From IMG/VR virus record IMGVR_UViG_2667527591_000023: a stretch of DNA of 34,158 nt. One strand, 5' to 3'. Position 1 is the stretch's first letter. The number at the start of each line of letters is the position of its first letter. Both the position numbers and the translations under genes were made by a program. Positions 1-10,221 of this stretch are shown piece after piece. The notes under the pieces were generated by a model, which did no database searches, had not been told where the DNA came from, and worked only from the letters and a program-made list of their open reading frames with translations. The DNA is from a virus (Duplodnaviria > Heunggongvirae > Uroviricota > Caudoviricetes).

Positions 1-1032
1 TCAAAAACTTGCTATTGATGTTGGTAGTGTTGCCAGCGGATTAAACCGTAATGCAGTTTCCAGGTGATCCGGTGCCAGATGTGCGTAACGCATAGTCATT
101 TTTATGTCGTGATGTCCGAGGATTTTTTGCAAAGCAAGGATATTTCCACCCGACATCATAAAATGCGCCGCAAACGTATGGCGCAGAACGTGTGTCAGTT
201 GACCGCGAGGGAGCACGATAGACGTTTTTTCCATCACGGATAAAAATTGAAAATAGCAGTCTGTGAAGAAATTGAACCCATCAAGCGCCATGATCTCTTC
301 GTAAAGCTCTTTACTGATAGGGATGCTTCTGTTTTTCTTCCCCTTCGTTCTTACAAAGGTAATTCGGTATTTGGTCACCTGTGAGCGGGTAAGATTTACG
401 GCTTCACGCCAGCGTGCGCCAGTGCTTAAGCATATCTTAACTACCAGTGCCAGAATTGGGTCCTGACGTTTACAATCAGCCAGCAATTCAACAATCTGTT
501 CATGGGTAAGCCATGCCATCTCTTTTTCTGCGATGGTGAATTTTCGCATGTTCTCCAGTGGGTTCGGATACGACCATTCGCCCAGGCGGGATAGTTCGCT
601 AAAAACACTACTAAGATAGCTTTGCTCCAGGTTAATAGTGACTGGGCTTGCTCCTTTTTTCCATTTCTCGCTGAAGTAGATCTCACCCGTCAGGCGTTTA
701 TCTCGATAGTGGGCAAACATTTTAGATGTGAGATCGGTTGCAAGGGGATTGCCCAGAGCGTCAACCATCAACAGCAATTTGTCATAGACATGCTGCCCAG
801 CGGTTAGAGATTTACCATGTAGTTTGAACCATAGCTCAACTACGTCTTTCAGTGTTCGACGATCCACTGATTCACCCAGCCAGGGCTTTGCTTCGGTTTC
901 TTCCATCGTGTGGCGCTCAAAAGCCAGAGCTTCGCCTTTGGTGGCGAATTGTTTACGCACACGACGCCCACTACGTCCGGCGGGGTAACATTCGCAAAGC
1001 CATTTCCCTGTGGTGAGTTTTCGTACTGCCAT
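1..1032 (-). CDS. int: P2-family tyrosine integrase (343 aa from MAVRKL; in-frame upstream extension to 1188 unlikely)
   Basis: C-terminal tyrosine recombinase motifs (LRHTFA..H..GG, ILGHxxxxMTMRYAHL); N-terminus MAVRKL..GK resembles P2 Int; stop codon at 1..3. Confidence 0.9.
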   Translation of the reverse strand: MAVRKLTTGKWLCECYPAGRSGRRVRKQFATKGEALAFERHTMEETEAKPWLGESVDRRTLKDVVELWFKLHGKSLTAGQHVYDKLLLMVDALGNPLATDLTSKMFAHYRDKRLTGEIYFSEKWKKGASPVTINLEQSYLSSVFSELSRLGEWSYPNPLENMRKFTIAEKEMAWLTHEQIVELLADCKRQDPILALVVKICLSTGARWREAVNLTRSQVTKYRITFVRTKGKKNRSIPISKELYEEIMALDGFNFFTDCYFQFLSVMEKTSIVLPRGQLTHVLRHTFAAHFMMSGGNILALQKILGHHDIKMTMRYAHLAPDHLETALRFNPLATLPTSIASF

Positions 1033-1220
1033 AAAAAATGCCCTCCAGTAGAGAGCATTTTTACTGTATGTATAACCAGTGTCAATGTATGAAATCCTAC
1101 GACCATACATCTCACTGAAGCCATAATGAAGTTGGCTATTCTTTTTGCTATGTGAGCATGTAACTTTTGCGGTTAACCTGCGGCTCATTTTTATTTTAGA
1201 CGCAGATATAAAAGCAAAAG

Positions 1221-1412
1221 TTATCGTGAGTTTTTAGTACAGATTTTTTTGGATTTACTAATAGTTCCATCATTGCAAACGAATTTGCCATCTGAGGTAC
1301 AGTGAGAAACACCTCCCTTTTTCCCTGAGCAGGGATAATTTCTAGCATAGGTAGTTAGTGGGTTTAATAACAAAGAACATGACAAAACCACAAAAAATAC
1401 CTTACCAAGCAT
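1221..1412 (-). CDS. Small secreted cysteine-rich protein (63 aa), hypothetical; moron between int and cI
   Basis: Strong RBS GGGAGG before ATG; N-terminal hydrophobic signal-like segment; 5 Cys; locus visibly AT-rich. Confidence 0.6.
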
Positions 1413-1427: not shown

Positions 1428-2084
1428 CTATTTAACATACTTGACTGTTAAACTTATAATTTTACCAATTATTTCAATGTCTTCTATCTTGCATTCGAAG
1501 GCTCTGTTTCCACCCTCGACGAAGATTCTTCCACCGGGTAAACGAGTAATGTCACGGATCGTTATTTCGCCATCAATACTTATTACCCATTTACCATCAC
1601 GTATATCATCAAATTCTTTATCACAAATAAATTCAGAATTGTTATCTGTGATGACAAAAGGTTTTTTAAACGCAGAGGGTAGAAATCCCTTATCAAAAAT
1701 ATAAAAACCGTCTTTCTGCAATGCTCCATCAGACAATAAATATTTTTCTACTTCTATAGTATTTGTATTTGCTGATGCTTGCTTTGAACCATGCCCTGTT
1801 GTTAGCCAATTAAGCGAGGTGCCCGTTTCAAGGGCGCACTGGATTACCCAATCTGCTGGAAAAATATCACGCATATAGCGCGTTGCCATGGTGCTCTTAG
1901 AAACACCTAAATGATCACAGAGAGCCTGACGGGTACCGAACCCATATGCTTCAACTAAACGTTCTATGGCTTTCTTACCGCCGCTATTGAAATCCACAAG
2001 TCCTCCAAAGAAATCCAAAATTCGTTGACAGATTCCAAAAGCGATCTTAAAGTTGAACCAGAAGTGTTCTTTTGGAGCCTTCAC
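1428..2084 (-). CDS. cI: Phage 186-type CI immunity repressor; start codon uncertain (track ORF begins at GTG, internal GTG/TTG starts possible)
   Basis: Motif LVEAYGFG....L.HLG.S.S..A.RY.R...P..W...CALETG..L.WL.TG matches the 186 CI N-terminal domain as I recall it. Confidence 0.8.
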   Translation of the reverse strand: MKAPKEHFWFNFKIAFGICQRILDFFGGLVDFNSGGKKAIERLVEAYGFGTRQALCDHLGVSKSTMATRYMRDIFPADWVIQCALETGTSLNWLTTGHGSKQASANTNTIEVEKYLLSDGALQKDGFYIFDKGFLPSAFKKPFVITDNNSEFICDKEFDDIRDGKWVISIDGEITIRDITRLPGGRIFVEGGNRAFECKIEDIEIIGKIISLTVKYVK

Positions 2085-4211: not shown

Positions 4212-5065
4212 GCACCATCCTGAAATGGGCGGGAAATAAAACTGCCATTATGTCCGAACTGAAAAAACACCTTCCTGCTGGCCCGCGACTGGTTGAACCT
4301 TTCGCGGGTTCCTGTGCTGTGATGATGGAGACGGATTACCCCAGCTATCTTGTTGCGGATATTAATCCTGATTTAATCAACCTCTATAAAAAGGTTGCTG
4401 CTGATTGTGAGGCGTTTATATCTCGTGCCAGAGCTTTATTTGAGGAAGCAAACAGGGAGGTGGCTTATTACAACATAAGGCAGGAGTTTAATTACTCCAC
4501 TGAAATTACTGATTTCATGAAAGCGATATATTTTCTGTATCTCAATCGTCATGGTTACCGTGGGTTATGTCGCTATAACAAGAGCGGGTATTTCAACATT
4601 CCCTACGGTAATTATAAAAATCCGTATTTCCCTGAAAAAGAAATTCGCGCATTTGCAGAGAAAGCCCAGCGGGCAACGTTTATCTGCGCCAGCTTTGATG
4701 AAACGCTGGCGATGTTGAAGGCGGGGGATGTGGTGTATTGCGATCCGCCGTATGACGGTACGTTTTCCGGCTATCACACTGATGGTTTCACTGAAGATGA
4801 CCAGTATCACCTGGCATCCGTTCTTGAACATCGGTCATCAGAAGGACATCCGGTCATTGTTTCTAACAGTGACACATCCCTGATCCGTTCGCTGTATCGC
4901 AATTTTACTCACCACTACATCAAGGCAAAACGCAGCATCGGCGTAGCAGCTGGTGAGAGTAAATCTGCAACAGAAATCATCGCTGTTTCTGGGGCGCGCT
5001 GCTGGGTGGGATTTGATCCTTCGCGTGGCGTGGATAGTTCTGCCGTGTATGGAGTGCGTGCATGA
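4208..5065 (+). CDS. dam: Orphan DNA adenine methyltransferase, Dam-like (N6-adenine, probably GATC), 285 aa
   Basis: KWAGNK, EPFAGS, DPPY motifs; colinear with E. coli Dam; ATGA overlap with upstream and downstream genes. Confidence 0.9.
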
Positions 5066-7476
5066 GCCATGCTGATATGAACAACTGCAGCGGCTTTAAC
5101 GAGGCCGCCGCAGCATTCTCATGGAACAGCCCGAAAAAGGCTATTAACCCTTATCTGGACCCGGCGGAAGTTGCGCCGGTTTCTGCGCTTTCAAACCTGA
5201 TCACTCTGTACGCTGCCGATAACGAGCAGGAACAACTGCGCCGCGAGGCACTGAGTGATCAGGTCTGGGAGCGTTATTTCTTTAATGCATCCCGTGATCC
5301 TGTCCAGCGCGAAATGGAGCAGGATAAGCTCATTAGCCGGGCAAAGCTGGCGCATGAGCAGCAGCGTTTTAATCCGGACATGGTCATACTGGCGGACGTT
5401 AACGCCCAGCCTTCCCATATCAGCAAGCCGCTGATGCAACGTATTGAATACTTCAGCAGCCTGGGCAGGCCAAAGGCTTATTCCCGCTATTTGCGTGAGA
5501 CGATTAAGCCATGTCTGGAACGACTGGAGCATGTACGCGACAGTCAGCTATCCACTTCTTTTCGCTTTATGGCAAGCCATGAAGGGCTGGACGGCCTGCT
5601 GATCTTGCCTGAAATGAGTCAGGATCAGGTGAAACGCCTGTCTACTCTTGTCGCTGCGCATATGAGTATGTGTCTTGATGCCGCTTGTGGTGATTTGTAT
5701 GCCACCGATGATGTTAAGCCAGAAGAAATCCGCAAGACATGGGAAAAGGTGGCAGCAGAAACCCTGCGACTGGATGTCATACCGCCTGCGTTTGAGCAAC
5801 TCCGCCGGAAAAGAAACCGCCGTAAACCCGTACCCTATGAACTCATTCCGGGTTCGCTGGCGCGTATGTTGTGCGCCGACTGGTGGTATCGGAAATTGTG
5901 GAAGATGCGTTGTGAATGGCGGGAAGAGCAGTTGCGTGCTGTTTGCCTGGTCAGCAAAAAAGCATCTCCCTATGTCAGCTATGAAGCCGTGATGCATAAA
6001 CGTGAGCAGCGCCGTAAGTCGCTGGAGTTTTTCCGTTCTCATGAACTGGTGAACGAAGACGGCGACACGCTGGACATGGAGGATGTGGTAAACGCCAGCA
6101 GCAGCAACCCTGCGCATCGCCGCAATGAGATGATGGCCTGTGTTAAAGGTCTGGAGCTTATCGCGGAAATGCGCGGTGACTGCGCCGTTTTCTACACCAT
6201 CACCTGTCCGTCACGTTTCCATTCCACGCTAAATAACGGCAGGCCCAACCCGACCTGGACAAATGCGACGGTAAGACAAAGCAGTGATTATCTGGTCGGC
6301 ATGTTTGCTGCATTTCGTAAGGCGATGCACAAAGCCGGATTGCGCTGGTATGGCGTGCGGGTGGCTGAGCCGCATCATGACGGCACAGTTCACTGGCACC
6401 TGTTGTGTTTCATGCGCAAAAAAGACCGCCGCGCCATTACTGCATTGTTGCGTAAGTTTGCTATCCGTGAAGACCGCGAGGAGCTGGGTAATAACACGGG
6501 GCCACGCTTTAAGTCTGAGCTGATAAACCCGCGCAAAGGAACGCCGACTAGCTACATCGCGAAATACATCAGTAAGAACATTGACGGGCGTGGTCTGGCT
6601 GGCGAGATCAGCAAGGAAACGGGTAAATCTCTGCGTGATAACGCTGAATACGTTAATGCCTGGGCGTCTCTGCATCGTGTTCAGCAATTCCGCTTCTTTG
6701 GCATTCCGGGGCGTCAGGCTTACCGTGAACTGCGATTGCTGGCTGGTCAGGCGGCAAGGCAACAGGGTGACAAAAAAGCAGGTGCGCCGGTACTGGATAA
6801 CCCGCGCCTTGATGCCATTCTGGCTGCAGCTGATGCTGGTTGTTTTGCCACCTACATCATGAAGCAGGGCGGCGTACTGGTTCCCCGTAAATATCACCTC
6901 ATCAGAACCGCTTATGAAATCAACGAAGAGCCGACCGCCTATGGCGATCACGGCATTCGTATTTATGGCATCTGGTCACCCATTGCAGAGGGTAAGATCT
7001 GCACTCATGCAGTGAAGTGGAAAATGGTTCGTAAGGCCGTTGACGTTCAGGAGGCGGCAGCCGACCAGGGCGCTTGCGCCCCTTGGACTCGTGGCAATAA
7101 CTGTCCCCTTGCTGAAAATTTGAACCAACAAGGGAAAGACAAATCAGCTGATGGGGATACCAGAACGGATATCACCCGCATGGATGACAAGGAGTTGCAC
7201 GATTACCTGCACAGTATGAGCAAAAAAGAGCGCCGGGAACTGGCAGCAAGATTACGCCTGGTTAAACCGAAACGGCGTAAAGACTACAAACAGCGAATTA
7301 CAGAGTATCAGCGTCAGCAGCTCGTCTATGAACTGAAGTCCAGAGGATTTGATGGCAGCGAGAAAGAGGTCAATTTGCTCCTTCGCGGCGGCAGTATTCC
7401 GTCAGGAGCAGGCCTGCGTATCTTCTATCGGAACCAGCGTTTGCAGGAAGATGATCAGTGGCGGAACCTGTATTAA
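5062..7476 (+). CDS. A: Replication initiation endonuclease (P2 gpA / 186 RepA family), 804 aa
   Basis: Large early protein; HxH-type block ([10 protein letters not shown]) and size typical of P2 gpA-type rolling-circle initiators. Confidence 0.85.
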
Positions 7477-7569
7477 TTACGCGGGTTAACAATTCGTGCT
7501 ATTAATAATACCAGGCATATCAGGCTGATGAACGTAAAAAAACGTTTTACATCAGTAAGATTATTATAT

Positions 7570-7587
7570 ACTGTAAATATAAACAGT
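7570..7587 (+). promoter_or_regulatory. LexA (SOS) box aCTGTaaatataaACAGt, with TATAGT -10-like element just downstream
   Basis: CTGT-N8-ACAG with AT-rich spacer, about 45 bp upstream of ATG 7630. Confidence 0.7.
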
Positions 7588-7629
7588 GGTTATACATATA
7601 GTATTGCGTGTGGTGTCATAGGAGGAAAG

Positions 7630-7818
7630 ATGCAGGACTATTTTTTGGAGTCTTTGAAGCTCCAGCGCATTGATTTTTTTCTTAAGCTTGTAGCGGCTAG
7701 TGAGTGTAGTGATGAAGAGAAGGGGCTGGCTCTGCAGTGGGTTTCTGAATTGACTGATGAACTCATGGCAAAAATCAGAACCCACGAATACAACCGCTCA
7801 ATGGATGTCATCAGCTGA
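7630..7818 (+). CDS. Small SOS-operon protein (62 aa), possible N-terminal part of a Tum-like antirepressor
   Basis: AGGAGG RBS before ATG 7630; immediately downstream of LexA box; an alternate frame stays open from 7757 into the DinI-like gene. Confidence 0.55.
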   Translation: MQDYFLESLKLQRIDFFLKLVAASECSDEEKGLALQWVSELTDELMAKIRTHEYNRSMDVIS

Positions 7819-7828
7819 GGTGACTTTT

Positions 7829-8062
7829 ATGCGCATTGAAATAATGATCGATAAAGAGCAGAAGATTAGCCAGTCTACCCTGGACGCCCTTGAATCCGAG
7901 CTTTACCGCAATCTGCGCCCCCTGTATCCCAAAACGGTAATTCGCATTCGCAAAGGTAGCTCTAACGGTGTGGAACTAACCGGACTGCAACTGGACGAAG
8001 AAAGAAAACAAGTGATGAAAATTATGCAGAAGGTGTGGGAAGACGACAGCTGGCTGCATTAA
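7829..8062 (+). CDS. DinI-family protein (77 aa)
   Basis: MRIEIMIDK ... conserved acidic C-terminus (WEDDSW) resembles E. coli DinI. Confidence 0.8.
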   Translation: MRIEIMIDKEQKISQSTLDALESELYRNLRPLYPKTVIRIRKGSSNGVELTGLQLDEERKQVMKIMQKVWEDDSWLH

Positions 8063-8196
8063 GAAACGTTGCTGGCGTCTGAACTTGCTTCTGGCGTCAG
8101 CAAGGTTGAACAACGAGCCCTTGCGAGGCGTTAGCTCTGTAGTGCATGTCTATGCCGCATGAGATCGCATGATCGTTTGAGGATCGTTTTTGCTAA

Positions 8197-8224
8197 GGCC
8201 CGCCAGAACTGGCGGGCTTTTGCG
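8197..8224 (+). terminator. Rho-independent terminator after the SOS operon
   Basis: GCCCGCCAG-aact-CTGGCGGGC hairpin followed by TTTTG. Confidence 0.7.
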
Positions 8225-8266
8225 TAGATCATGCAGGTGCATGAAAACCACTACATAAAGCGGGCA

Positions 8267-8285
8267 GGCGTAGCGGGGATACGAG
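8267..8285. other. Putative cos (cohesive end) site
   Basis: GGCGTAGCGGGGATACGAG resembles my recollection of the P2 19-nt cohesive end, at the position expected between the A-distal region and Q. Confidence 0.35.
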
Positions 8286-8370
8286 CGCGCGCAACGGGGT
8301 GAAATGGTGAAAATCCGGCGCAATCTCCGGCACGCTGGCGGCTTCAATTGGTGAGGGTGGGGGAGCGGCA

Positions 8371-8410
8371 GAAAAAAAGAAGCGCCCCGCAGAATGCTGC
8401 TGGGGCGCTG
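8371..8410 (-). terminator. Rho-independent terminator downstream of Q (minus strand)
   Basis: Imperfect hairpin AGCGCCCCGCAG/CTGCTGGGGCGCT preceded on the plus strand by A7 (a U-tract on the minus-strand transcript). Confidence 0.6.
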
Positions 8411-8443
8411 TGAGGGGTAGTCTTGTTGTCGTGGTGCGGTGGG

Positions 8444-9499
8444 TCAGTCGTTGCGCTTGTCTTCTGTCAGTCCCAGCGTGTACGGCTCAAAGCGGATCAC
8501 TTCTTCTCCAAGCCAGTCGTTAAGCTCCTGCAGTCGCTTCTGCAGCGGCATCAGCTCGTTGCGGACAAAGACGCGGCTGGCCTTTTCCACATCACCAAAG
8601 CCGCCGGTATTGTTGGGAATAATGCCCATCATCTGCGGCGGTACGCGGTGCGCTGCCATCATGTCATCGCGGCTCACGTTCTTGATGTTCAGAAACTCAT
8701 CCTTTGCCGCAACCTCCGATAACGGGATGATCTGGATGCCGTCCTTTTTACCGTTGGGTGAGTACATAAACAGGTTACGGAAGTTGCCCGGCCCTTTGGC
8801 GCTTTTCATTGCCTGGCGGATATTGTTCACGTCCTCCTGATTCTGTGCTGCGTCGGTCATGTACATGATGAAACCCGCATGGCTGCCGTTGATGTAATAC
8901 TTCCGGCGGAACAGCGTTGCGGACTCGTTGAGCAGGGTTGACGGGATGGCGGAGAGATAGCCGGGCAGCCCGTAAATCTCCTGGTTAATATCCGGCTCCA
9001 GCAGATGAAAGATGTTGCCCTGCGTAAATTCATAGGGCTGCGTGGTCAGGCCATACTGCACAAACCAGTAGGTGTCGAGGTCCACGCCACGGCGTGTGTA
9101 CTTCGCCAGTGCTGGCTCCAGTGAGAGAACGCCGCCGAGCCGGTTGGTGCGCTTTTCCAGATAGGCGTTACCGAACACCAGATAGTCCTGTACGAAACGG
9201 GCAAAAGCCTGCTGGCTGAGCAGGCGGTGCGGGATGTAGGTACTGCTGAGAATGTCACGCTTAACGGCAATCGGTGAGCTGTGATGCACGGCGGCGCGAT
9301 AGGTCCGCGCCAGTCCGTCAAAGCTCACCGGCGGCTCATACCAGCGGTCCATCTGCACGCATTCCACGTAGTCCAGCAATTCGCGTCGGTCTAACACCGG
9401 CACCGGGTCGCCAAAGCTAAACGCCTCTGCCGCAGCGCCGCCAGATTCTGCGTTGTGATCCACCGCTGCGCGGTTGTTCTTGTTTTTACGTTTGCTCAT
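8444..9499 (-). CDS. Q: Portal protein (P2 gpQ family), 351 aa
   Basis: Size and position next to terminase; GGAG RBS; start overlaps upstream stop (ATGA). Confidence 0.9.
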   Translation of the reverse strand: MSKRKNKNNRAAVDHNAESGGAAAEAFSFGDPVPVLDRRELLDYVECVQMDRWYEPPVSFDGLARTYRAAVHHSSPIAVKRDILSSTYIPHRLLSQQAFARFVQDYLVFGNAYLEKRTNRLGGVLSLEPALAKYTRRGVDLDTYWFVQYGLTTQPYEFTQGNIFHLLEPDINQEIYGLPGYLSAIPSTLLNESATLFRRKYYINGSHAGFIMYMTDAAQNQEDVNNIRQAMKSAKGPGNFRNLFMYSPNGKKDGIQIIPLSEVAAKDEFLNIKNVSRDDMMAAHRVPPQMMGIIPNNTGGFGDVEKASRVFVRNELMPLQKRLQELNDWLGEEVIRFEPYTLGLTEDKRND

Positions 9500-10221
9500 G
9501 CCGCCTGCTCCTTGTCAGCCTGGGGCCATTCGCACATAAACAGCATTTTCCAGTCCTCCGGTGATAATTCTTTTTTCATGTCATTCAGCCATTCATCATC
9601 AAAGAGCGCGGCTCCGGTTGCGAGCGTAGCCCCGGATGCTGCAGCGTCATCAGCGGTAAAGGTCATGCAGGTAGTGCTGTTGCGGGCGATCAGATTCTTG
9701 TATTCCTGCCATGCTTCCGGGCTGGGGCTTGGGGTGGTGTAGTAGGTAGCGTGATAGCGCGCGTGCATGGACAGGCTTTTGGCGAGCGCAATCATATTTT
9801 TGGGGGAGTCAGCCCAGGCATACTCTGACACGTAGACGTTTCCATGGAGCGCGGCGGCGAGACTTTCCGGCCCGATAAAATAAATGACCGCACCGTTTGG
9901 GAGTTCCAGATGCGCTTTACCTGATTTTATTTTCCCAAGATGCGTCCAGGCTGCTGCCTCACTTAAAAAAGCTGATATATAGGTTTTGACGGTCAGGGCT
10001 GATGCCGGGGTGCAGCCCAGAAAAATCTGGTTGCGTCCGGTGTGCAGTGCATCGTTCAGGGCTTCGTAGGCGAAAAAGAAATCCGCGCCAGCCTGACGCA
10101 TTTTTGTAAGCACGCGGTTTCTGCTGCGTGCGCCACTGTTCCATTCATGCTGGTAAGCAAAGAAAGGGCGATCTACAGGCAGGCTGGCGGTGGTCATGAG
10201 GTTAGTTGGGGTTGAGTGCAT
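9496..10221 (-). CDS. Terminase large-subunit ATPase-domain paralogue (241 aa) inserted between P and Q; lacks gpP N-terminal region and C-terminal nuclease domain
   Basis: Aligns to central gpP blocks: FAYQHEW/FNYQRHW, RQAGADFFFAYEALNDALHTGRNQIFL / RQIGATFYFAREALIDALLTGRNQIFL, LPNGAVIYFIG / LPNGATLYFLG, YYTTPS / YFSTPS, MLFMCEW / LLMCEF. GGAG RBS; start overlaps P stop (TGATG), stop overlaps Q start (ATGA). Confidence 0.85.
   Translation of the reverse strand: MHSTPTNLMTTASLPVDRPFFAYQHEWNSGARSRNRVLTKMRQAGADFFFAYEALNDALHTGRNQIFLGCTPASALTVKTYISAFLSEAAAWTHLGKIKSGKAHLELPNGAVIYFIGPESLAAALHGNVYVSEYAWADSPKNMIALAKSLSMHARYHATYYTTPSPSPEAWQEYKNLIARNSTTCMTFTADDAAASGATLATGAALFDDEWLNDMKKELSPEDWKMLFMCEWPQADKEQAA

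Follow-up and report, generated by a model that had tools for sequence, protein, structure and literature searches.

The DNA analyzed here (hereafter the window) is a 34,158-nucleotide stretch of a tailed-phage genome, IMG/VR record IMGVR_UViG_2667527591_000023. We conclude, with a probability of roughly 85%, that two small genes following its replication gene A form the operon for SOS induction of a Fels-2-like prophage of the 186 family (Peduoviridae), in which the tum function of phage 186 is carried in split form by tumA and tumB and TumA acts on the CI repressor. In phage 186, induction proceeds via Tum, which is made from the LexA-regulated promoter p95 and which inhibits and sequesters CI (Murchland et al. 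2020, PMC7708051). The split, LexA-controlled, Tum-like module of the window is real, and its arrangement has been described before in Fels-2 and PSP3: where Lemire et al. 2011 (PMC3121763) deal with these two phages, they state, citing Bunny et al. 2002, that tum is split in two. The split arrangement itself is thus ordinary, and the mildly novel points presented below are side findings only.

Gene order identifies the window as a P2/186-like (Peduoviridae) prophage. The int gene (about 1-1034, minus strand) is followed by cI (1428-1997, minus strand), an apl-like ORF, cII (a match to PF06892), a dam methylase-like ORF named via its match to an annotated gene of 813R9, and replication gene A (5062-7476, PF05840), after which the tum module comes next. 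On its other side lie the portal gene (8444-9499) and the terminase gene, both on the minus strand; between these two genes, the ATPase domain of the terminase has a paralogue of 241 aa. The tum module therefore lies downstream of replication gene A and ahead of the cos/portal genome end, and the order of gene A, tum locus, and portal/cos is common to the window, 186, PSP3, and Fels-2. The original prediction had placed the module where 186 carries its tum operon, and the place after gene A is indeed the annotated p95-tum locus of that phage.

The 3' side of the operon can be delimited by predicted RNA structures on the plus strand. Directly downstream of tumB, a stem-loop without a U tract (8065-8107; RNA fold -23.5 kcal/mol, z -2.4) occupies the place of the partial terminator t95a of 186 and may function in the same way. 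The operon probably ends at an intrinsic terminator at about 8195-8222, a GC-rich hairpin, GGCCCGCCAGAACUGGCGGGC, followed by UUUU. This strong terminator, which precedes the portal gene, has a folding energy of -25.1 kcal/mol (z -4.0), and none of 200 shuffled sequences was equally stable. An Rfam search of positions 7400-8500 returned no RNA family.

At the 5' side of the operon, a tum promoter equivalent to p95 can be read from the sequence of the plus strand, with a -35 hexamer, TTTACA, at 7546-7551 and, 17 nt after it, a -10 hexamer, TACTGT, at 7569-7574, both of which are invariant in 8 relatives. We recognized this promoter from its likeness to the annotated p95 of 186 (TTCACA-N17-TACTGT). 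A scan with the sigma-70 consensus found no promoter at tum, because the -10 hexamer is at the same time the LexA half-site TACTGT, with only 3 of 6 positions matching. That half-site is the left half of LexA (SOS) box 1, the 20-mer TACTGTAAATATAAACAGTG at 7569-7588, which matches the LexA consensus and is a predicted LexA site. The shorter pattern CTGT-N8-ACAG, found at 7571-7586 inside the 20-mer TACTGTAAATATAAACAGTG, is not rare as a bare 16-mer: by chance, 0.45 occurrences would be expected in the window, and at least one is present in 37 of 100 shuffles. The whole 20-mer differs from the LexA consensus TACTGTATATATATACAGTA by 3 mismatches and is the sole site in the window with 3 mismatches or fewer, and no such site arose in any of 100 shuffles, which upholds the earlier claim of a near-consensus SOS box ahead of the 62-aa ORF. 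Moreover, box 1 keeps its position in 8 diverged relatives while its flanks vary, and an equivalent LexA box is found upstream of the tum-type gene in 186, PSP3, Fels-2, and the ESSI-2-like and Yersinia phages. The predicted LexA operator thus overlaps the tum -10 hexamer, and we infer that LexA binds there.

Box 1 is accompanied by a putative second, overlapping SOS box of the colicin type (7584-7603, with the core GTGGTTATACATATAG at 7586-7601), which starts directly after box 1, the two cores sharing one base, and which is degenerate in the window. In the relatives, box 2 reads GTGGTTAT-N3-TACAG. Among the 120 IMG/VR viral contigs that carry the same operator, its three central bases vary freely, and the right half reads TACAG in all but one (119); the exception is the window, with TATAG, so that box 2 reads GTG-N10-TAG here and GTG-N10-CAG in the relatives and in the operator of the colicin-like bacteriocin gene on plasmid pCKO3. 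This rare change in the CAG core may make LexA control in the window quantitatively different from that in the relatives. A full-text search of the literature matched the box-2 sequence in no paper.

A LexA-box-like element was also observed far from the tum locus, on the minus strand near int, where the succession reads TTGACA (1087-1082), CACTGGTTATACATACAGTA (1081-1062), AAAAAT, GGAGGG, and the int ATG (1034-1032). On sequence, this is a possible int promoter in which a LexA box serves as the spacer. The combination of TTGACA and a LexA box is found upstream of the same integrase type in about 100 of the 120 viral contigs, and the same int-type promoter pattern stands ahead of an ORF beginning MFVELVYDKRNV in 15 of the 120. 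We take this ORF to be possibly DinI/MsgA-like.

The first gene of the operon, tumA (7630-7818, plus strand), encodes a predicted antirepressor of 62 aa and is preceded by a Shine-Dalgarno sequence, AGGAGG, at 7620-7625 that is invariant in 8 relatives. Other readings of this region were considered and rejected. A 96-aa reading from the ATG at 7528 would start upstream of the promoter, and it is excluded because the relatives carry indels upstream of the invariant AGGAGG whose lengths are not multiples of three and which break the frame. For the antisense ORFs at 7564-7785 and 7638-7811, the pattern of substitutions suits the plus-strand frames instead.

Whether the 62-aa ORF resembles Tum, a point on which the original prediction depended, was answered differently by pairwise and by profile methods. 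BLASTP gave no alignment of the ORF with 186 Tum or with PSP3 TumA, nor any between PSP3 TumA and 186 Tum; these proteins are too short and too diverged for pairwise search, and profiles were therefore needed. When a profile built from 27 diverse homologues of the ORF was compared by hhalign with the 186-type Tum N-terminal family, the two aligned over residues 2-44 of each with a probability of 96.2% and an E value of 2.2e-9, at an identity of only 19%. The same profile matched a 60-aa "tum protein" of a Yersinia phage with a probability of 96.6%; its match to PSP3 TumA alone was weak (7% probability). Consistent results came from the PHROGs collection, in which the ORF family is phrog_698, with further matches to phrog_8554 and phrog_1993, and in which residues 1-70 of 186 Tum match the same three families (E 5.9e-6 for phrog_698) plus the fused family phrog_189. 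In an alignment of 6 sequences, a central Ala-Leu pair alone is invariant, and a Cys 7 residues before this pair and an acidic residue 5 after the Leu are found in most members, not all. By these sequence comparisons, the 62-aa ORF is a homologue of the non-DinI half of Tum, remote but supported by profiles; the pairwise negative stands beside this, and the positive profile matches, including the PHROG cross-matches, keep the proposed relationship to Tum in place.

Databases offer little on this gene family. The ORF matches no family in Pfam or NCBIfam, a search of PDB sequences with its profile found nothing, and a full-text literature search on the names TumA and TumB returned unrelated papers only. 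AlphaFold2 models TumA as a two-helix hairpin (helices at residues 2-22 and 28-61; pLDDT 85.6), for which a Foldseek search of the PDB found generic helical hairpins only, none at an E value of 0.001 or below.

The presumed target of TumA is the product of cI, an immunity repressor that matches PF07022 and PF16452 and whose gene has a GTG start at 1997 after GGAGG. The window's CI is 33% identical to 186 CI, and its match to Peptidase S24, at 16 bits, falls short of the cut-off of 23.3. The prediction that CI is of the 186 type and has no obvious self-cleavage domain was thus confirmed at the level of domain thresholds. Because CI has no RecA-dependent self-cleavage domain, SOS induction of this prophage would need an antirepressor.

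These observations have to be weighed against a different reading of the 62-aa protein, to which we give a small though not negligible chance, namely that it is induced by SOS without being a CI antirepressor, being instead a partner or regulator of the DinI-like protein or of RecA, or a moron, with the prophage induced by another route. This reading draws on the remoteness of the similarity to Tum, which is detected by profiles only, and on databases in which genes of this type are labelled "hypothetical" or of "unknown function". It also draws on the diversity of the repressors found beside TumA: next to an identical TumA stand CI alleles that are 39-54% identical overall to the window's CI and 32-59% identical among themselves, a range not usually seen when a repressor and its antirepressor form a specific pair. 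However, the part of Tum to which the ORF is homologous is exactly the non-DinI half, the half that marks the Tum antirepressor off from the DinI-only short products. Moreover, the ESSI-2-like and Yersinia phages have no dinI gene yet retain both the LexA box and a gene of the tumA type, indicating that TumA works without a DinI partner. The upstream gene of PSP3 is reported to be the antirepressor in the part of Lemire et al. 2011 (PMC3121763) that deals with this phage, as a personal communication from G. E. Christie. The antirepressor function that we propose for TumA is accordingly one drawn from homology and from literature cited second-hand.

The diversity of CI alleles takes on another aspect when the two domains of the repressor are compared separately. 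Among phages with an identical TumA, the N-terminal domains of CI are 59-100% identical (mean, 75%) and the C-terminal domains 24-100% identical (mean, 39%). Across 15 phages, TumA identity tracks the identity of the CI N-terminal domain (Spearman 0.84; Mantel p 0.0005) and has no clear correlation with that of the C-terminal domain (Spearman 0.27; p 0.07). The relative constancy of the N-terminal domain, together with its correlation with TumA, argues against a protein unrelated to CI. This co-variation hints that TumA masks the DNA-binding domain of CI, a reading that it fits, and shared ancestry could give the same pattern.

The second gene, tumB (7829-8062, plus strand), encodes a 77-aa protein of the DinI family that is homologous to the C-terminal half of 186 Tum. 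Its Shine-Dalgarno sequence, GAGGTG, at 7817-7822 (plus strand) overlaps the stop codon of tumA. TumB matches the Pfam DinI family, PF06183, with an E value of 6.6e-23 over the full length of the profile, scoring 81.3 bits where the cut-off is 24.2, and it is 41% identical to residues 71-145 of 186 Tum; the description of this ORF as DinI-like therefore holds. The NCBIfam equivalog model for chromosomal DinI gives TumB 42.7 bits, below its cut-off of 111, which makes TumB a paralogue and not DinI itself. From its membership in the DinI family and from the annotation of the 186 protein, "modulates SOS induction", TumB may be expected to modulate SOS by way of RecA filaments.

In the window, the antirepressor module and the DinI module lie in different frames and are kept apart by a stop codon (7816-7818) and a spacer of 10 nt, and the single-ORF form was not encountered. 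The original prediction had left two alternatives, a genuine two-gene variant or a frame-disrupted tum, and only the former is sustained by comparison of the same locus in related phages. According to the latter, to which we assign a very low probability, a gene of about 144 aa that was once fused has recently been frameshifted, for example, at the A5 run at 7770-7774, and the present ORFs are pseudogene fragments. The sequence features that suggested it are as described: the DinI frame is open from 7754, 25 codons above the ATG of tumB, with a first ATG at 7757 and an overlap of 65 nt with the end of the 62-aa ORF, and deletion of one base in the A5 run would give a fusion of 143 aa, near the 146 aa of 186 Tum. 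However, tumA keeps its 62-aa length and the position of its stop codon in phages that have diverged to a dS of about 1, and at that divergence, dN/dS is 0.04-0.08 for tumA and 0.02-0.10 for tumB, values indicative of strong purifying selection on both genes and not of pseudogene fragments. Each gene also has its own ribosome-binding site, a purine-rich Shine-Dalgarno sequence and an ATG being present for tumB in every relative despite the variable length of the spacer. This length is 10, 11, 12, 13, or 3 nt among relatives, corresponding to frame offsets of 1, 2, 0, 1, and 0, so that there can be neither a single shared frameshift lesion nor a conserved programmed frameshift.

The distribution of the module speaks against a disrupted gene as well. 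Among the 120 IMG/VR viral contigs with this operator, a layout of 62 plus 77 aa was found in 103 of 111 evaluable ones and the fused form in none. Of 5426 complete E. coli genomes, 1144 carry the module, with the first ORF annotated "hypothetical protein". No DinI part was found in the tumA homologues, either among 66 representatives (from 1.84 billion proteins) or among 120 close matches. The loci of PSP3 and Fels-2 are split too, as are many of the 186 type, in which homologues of the Tum N-terminal part are stand-alone proteins of about 63 aa encoded on large contigs. Furthermore, phage Cartapus has a TumA identical to that of the window together with a diverged TumB (dS 1.18), so that the two genes recombine as separate modules. 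The module thus occurs fused in 186, adjacent in Fels-2, PSP3, and the window, and alone elsewhere, and, in the window, the A5 run and the frame that stays open upstream are incidental. Programmed ribosomal frameshifting or stop-codon bypass, yielding a full-length Tum beside the short products, could be imagined from the overlapping frames, the A-rich run, and the several nested products of 186 tum itself, but it is just as improbable, given that the shift needed is +1 and not the common -1, that GCA AAA ATC is no canonical slippery site, that the offset varies among relatives (with an in-frame stop in MLG42 and PSP3 and an offset of 2 in SopEPhi), that the overlap is under selection in the tumA frame only, and that a strong Shine-Dalgarno sequence stands ahead of tumB.

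For the favored reading, a two-gene SOS induction operon, we propose the following mechanism. In the undamaged cell, LexA would sit on the operator over the -10 hexamer of TTTACA-N17-TACTGT and keep the operon off. Upon DNA damage, RecA would become active, LexA would cleave itself, and the tum promoter would fire. The 62-aa TumA, a predicted two-helix hairpin, would then bind the 186-type CI, most likely at its conserved N-terminal DNA-binding domain, and CI bound by TumA would no longer bind its operators, releasing the early lytic promoter and allowing lytic growth. By analogy with DinI and the short 186 tum products, the 77-aa TumB may meanwhile tune the activity of RecA filaments and, in this way, how strong the SOS signal is or how long it lasts. 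The interaction of TumA with CI, the domain targeted, and the role of TumB are predictions from homology and comparison.

The model gives a functional name, tumA, an SOS antirepressor gene, to a gene that RefSeq, Pfam, NCBIfam, and PHROGs leave as "hypothetical" or of "unknown function" and that roughly one in five complete E. coli genomes carries. It predicts that the prophage is induced by DNA damage via an antirepressor and not by cleavage of its repressor. The SOS wiring of this prophage could also be richer than in the 186 model, comprising a double LexA operator at tum (with a rare, inactivating-looking change in box 2), a LexA-box promoter at int, and one invariant TumA that serves many CI alleles via their N-terminal domain; we put this forward as a tentative proposal that is rather less likely to be right than wrong. 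If it is true, co-resident Fels-2-type prophages with different CI C-terminal domains would be cross-induced, in the way seen with the Gifsy antirepressors. The double operator, the int LexA-box promoter, and the co-variation of TumA with CI would then refine the picture of induction timing and cross-talk in P2/186-like prophages.

Among known systems, the closest to the window is Fels-2 of Salmonella Typhimurium LT2, whose STM2728 and STM2726.1 products are identical to the window's pair at 61 of 62 and 77 of 77 residues, respectively, and whose module also agrees in its position after gene A, the 20-mer of box 1, the 10-nt spacer, and the frame offset. The two differ by one amino acid change in TumA (S62N) and by the right half of box 2, which is TACAG in Fels-2 and TATAG in the window. 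They also differ in that Fels-2 has cargo separating tumB from the portal gene, whereas the window has none there. In addition, the CI of the window is another allele, the CIs compared being the best match in the phage collection (57%) and that of Felsduovirus RE2010 (43%), not that of Fels-2 itself.

PSP3 has the same succession of a LexA box, a 60-aa gene, and a 77-aa DinI-like gene, all located after an A-like replicase gene. In GenBank, its tumA is annotated as "similar to 5' end 186 tum; UV induction of prophage" and its tumB as "similar to dinI and 3' end of 186 tum". While PSP3 TumB is close to the window's protein, the TumA proteins are only 14-19% identical and fall into different sub-families, phrog_1993 for PSP3 and phrog_698 for the window. 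Moreover, the two ORFs of PSP3 share one frame with a gap of 3 nt, and a single SOS box precedes them.

Phage 186 shares with the window the locus, the LexA box over a TACTGT -10 hexamer, the two sequence modules, and the family of the CI target. In contrast to the window, 186 carries both modules in one polypeptide of 146 aa, from which internal starts, one of them GTG, yield DinI-like short products; it also has a single SOS box, and orf97 comes next in the same operon. A functional parallel outside this family is provided by Gifsy-1 through Gifsy-3, in which a small LexA-repressed antirepressor (GfoA, GftA) is encoded beside a dinI homologue and acts on a repressor that does not undergo cleavage (PMC3121763). 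However, the Gifsy phages are lambdoid, dinI comes first in their arrangement, and their antirepressor and repressor families are unrelated to those considered here.

The operator, finally, has its counterpart in the colicins and cloacins. The 34-nt operator of Fels-2, ACTGTAAATATAAACAGTGGTTATATGTACAGTA, is nearly identical to that of the colicin-like bacteriocin gene on plasmid pCKO3, ACTGTATATAAAACCAGTGGTTATATGTACAGTA, and a 40-nt operator query matches 1187 plasmids, most of them small and mobilizable. In colicin promoters, a pair of overlapping SOS boxes is bound by two LexA dimers and guards against expression at the wrong time (PMC2994835). The difference is that the operator of the window stands ahead of a prophage antirepressor instead of a toxin and that its box 2 is without the CAG core.

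Comparing the 186-type repressor gene of the prophage, cI (1428-1997, minus strand), with other sequences (L016-L029), we found that a TumA, the predicted antirepressor, 98-100% identical to that of the window occurs with no fewer than five CI alleles (five to six). In CI alleles paired with near-identical TumA, the N-terminal domain is conserved, whereas the linkers and C-terminal domains are very different, and TumA identity correlates with CI N-terminal domain identity (Spearman 0.84). A comparison with 50,697 phage records gave no close relative of the window's CI allele; the nearest match was 57% identical.

Phage Cartapus (L015), compared with window 7630-8062, encodes the same TumA, with three synonymous differences in the gene, while its DinI-family TumB has diverged (dS of 1.18), a pattern indicating that a recombination junction lies within the 10-nt spacer that separates tumA from tumB. 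In the deposited genome of Escherichia phage 500465-1 (L002, 4483-5013), the reading frame of tumA is shifted over a short local stretch, ERGWLCSGVSEL, and an interruption follows codon 7 of the DinI-like gene. Since the annotations of gene A, portal, and terminase are split in this record, which also contains IS fragments, 500465-1 may represent either a prophage in decay or an assembly of low quality.

Downstream of tumB, the interval up to the portal gene (8063-8443) is short and lacks any ORF of at least 60 aa. The cargo at this site varies among related phages: the annotations name an abortive-infection protein for RE2010, a TIR-domain protein for 500465-1, and a Hypoth_Ymh-domain protein for 813R9, and Fels-2 has STM2726 here. 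Near 8267, this interval contains GGCGTAGCGGGG, which we take to resemble a cos motif. Between the portal and terminase genes lies a 241-aa ORF (9496-10221, minus strand), matching Pfam Terminase_6N, which is a diverged paralogue of the ATPase domain of the neighbouring 588-aa large terminase (33% identity, E of 1e-34) without the gpP-like N-terminal domain or the nuclease domain; a similar additional "terminase" ORF is annotated in 500465-1. Another ORF, of 63 aa (1221-1412, minus strand), is inserted between cI and the integrase gene, int, and encodes several cysteines and an N terminus resembling a signal peptide. With no match in Pfam and no counterpart in the related phages found, it looks like a moron.

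Upstream of the int ATG (1034-1032), a promoter-like element, TTGACA / CACTGGTTATACATACAGTA / AAAAAT (1059-1087, minus strand), has its spacer filled by a LexA-type box (CTG-N10-CAG) and is followed by GGAGGG and int. Of 120 viral contigs, about 100 have this pattern ahead of the same integrase type, and 15 have it ahead of an ORF beginning MFVELVYDKRNV, which may be DinI/MsgA-like. The element may be an SOS-inducible integrase promoter. Its box nearly equals the version commonest in related phages of box 2, the second SOS box of the tum operator (7584-7603, core 7586-7601). Box 2 reads TATAG in the window, whereas 119 of the 120 viral contigs related to it have TACAG.

Box 2 overlaps the LexA box over the -10 of the tum promoter (7569-7588), and by sequence the operator resembles a colicin-type double overlapping SOS box, unlike those of 186 and PSP3, which have a single SOS box each. 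Equivalent sites are found in Fels-2 (L006, ~1455-1474) and the ColRNAI plasmid pCKO3 (L030, 1966-1999), and the 34-nt operator of Fels-2 is nearly identical to that of a colicin-like bacteriocin gene on this plasmid.
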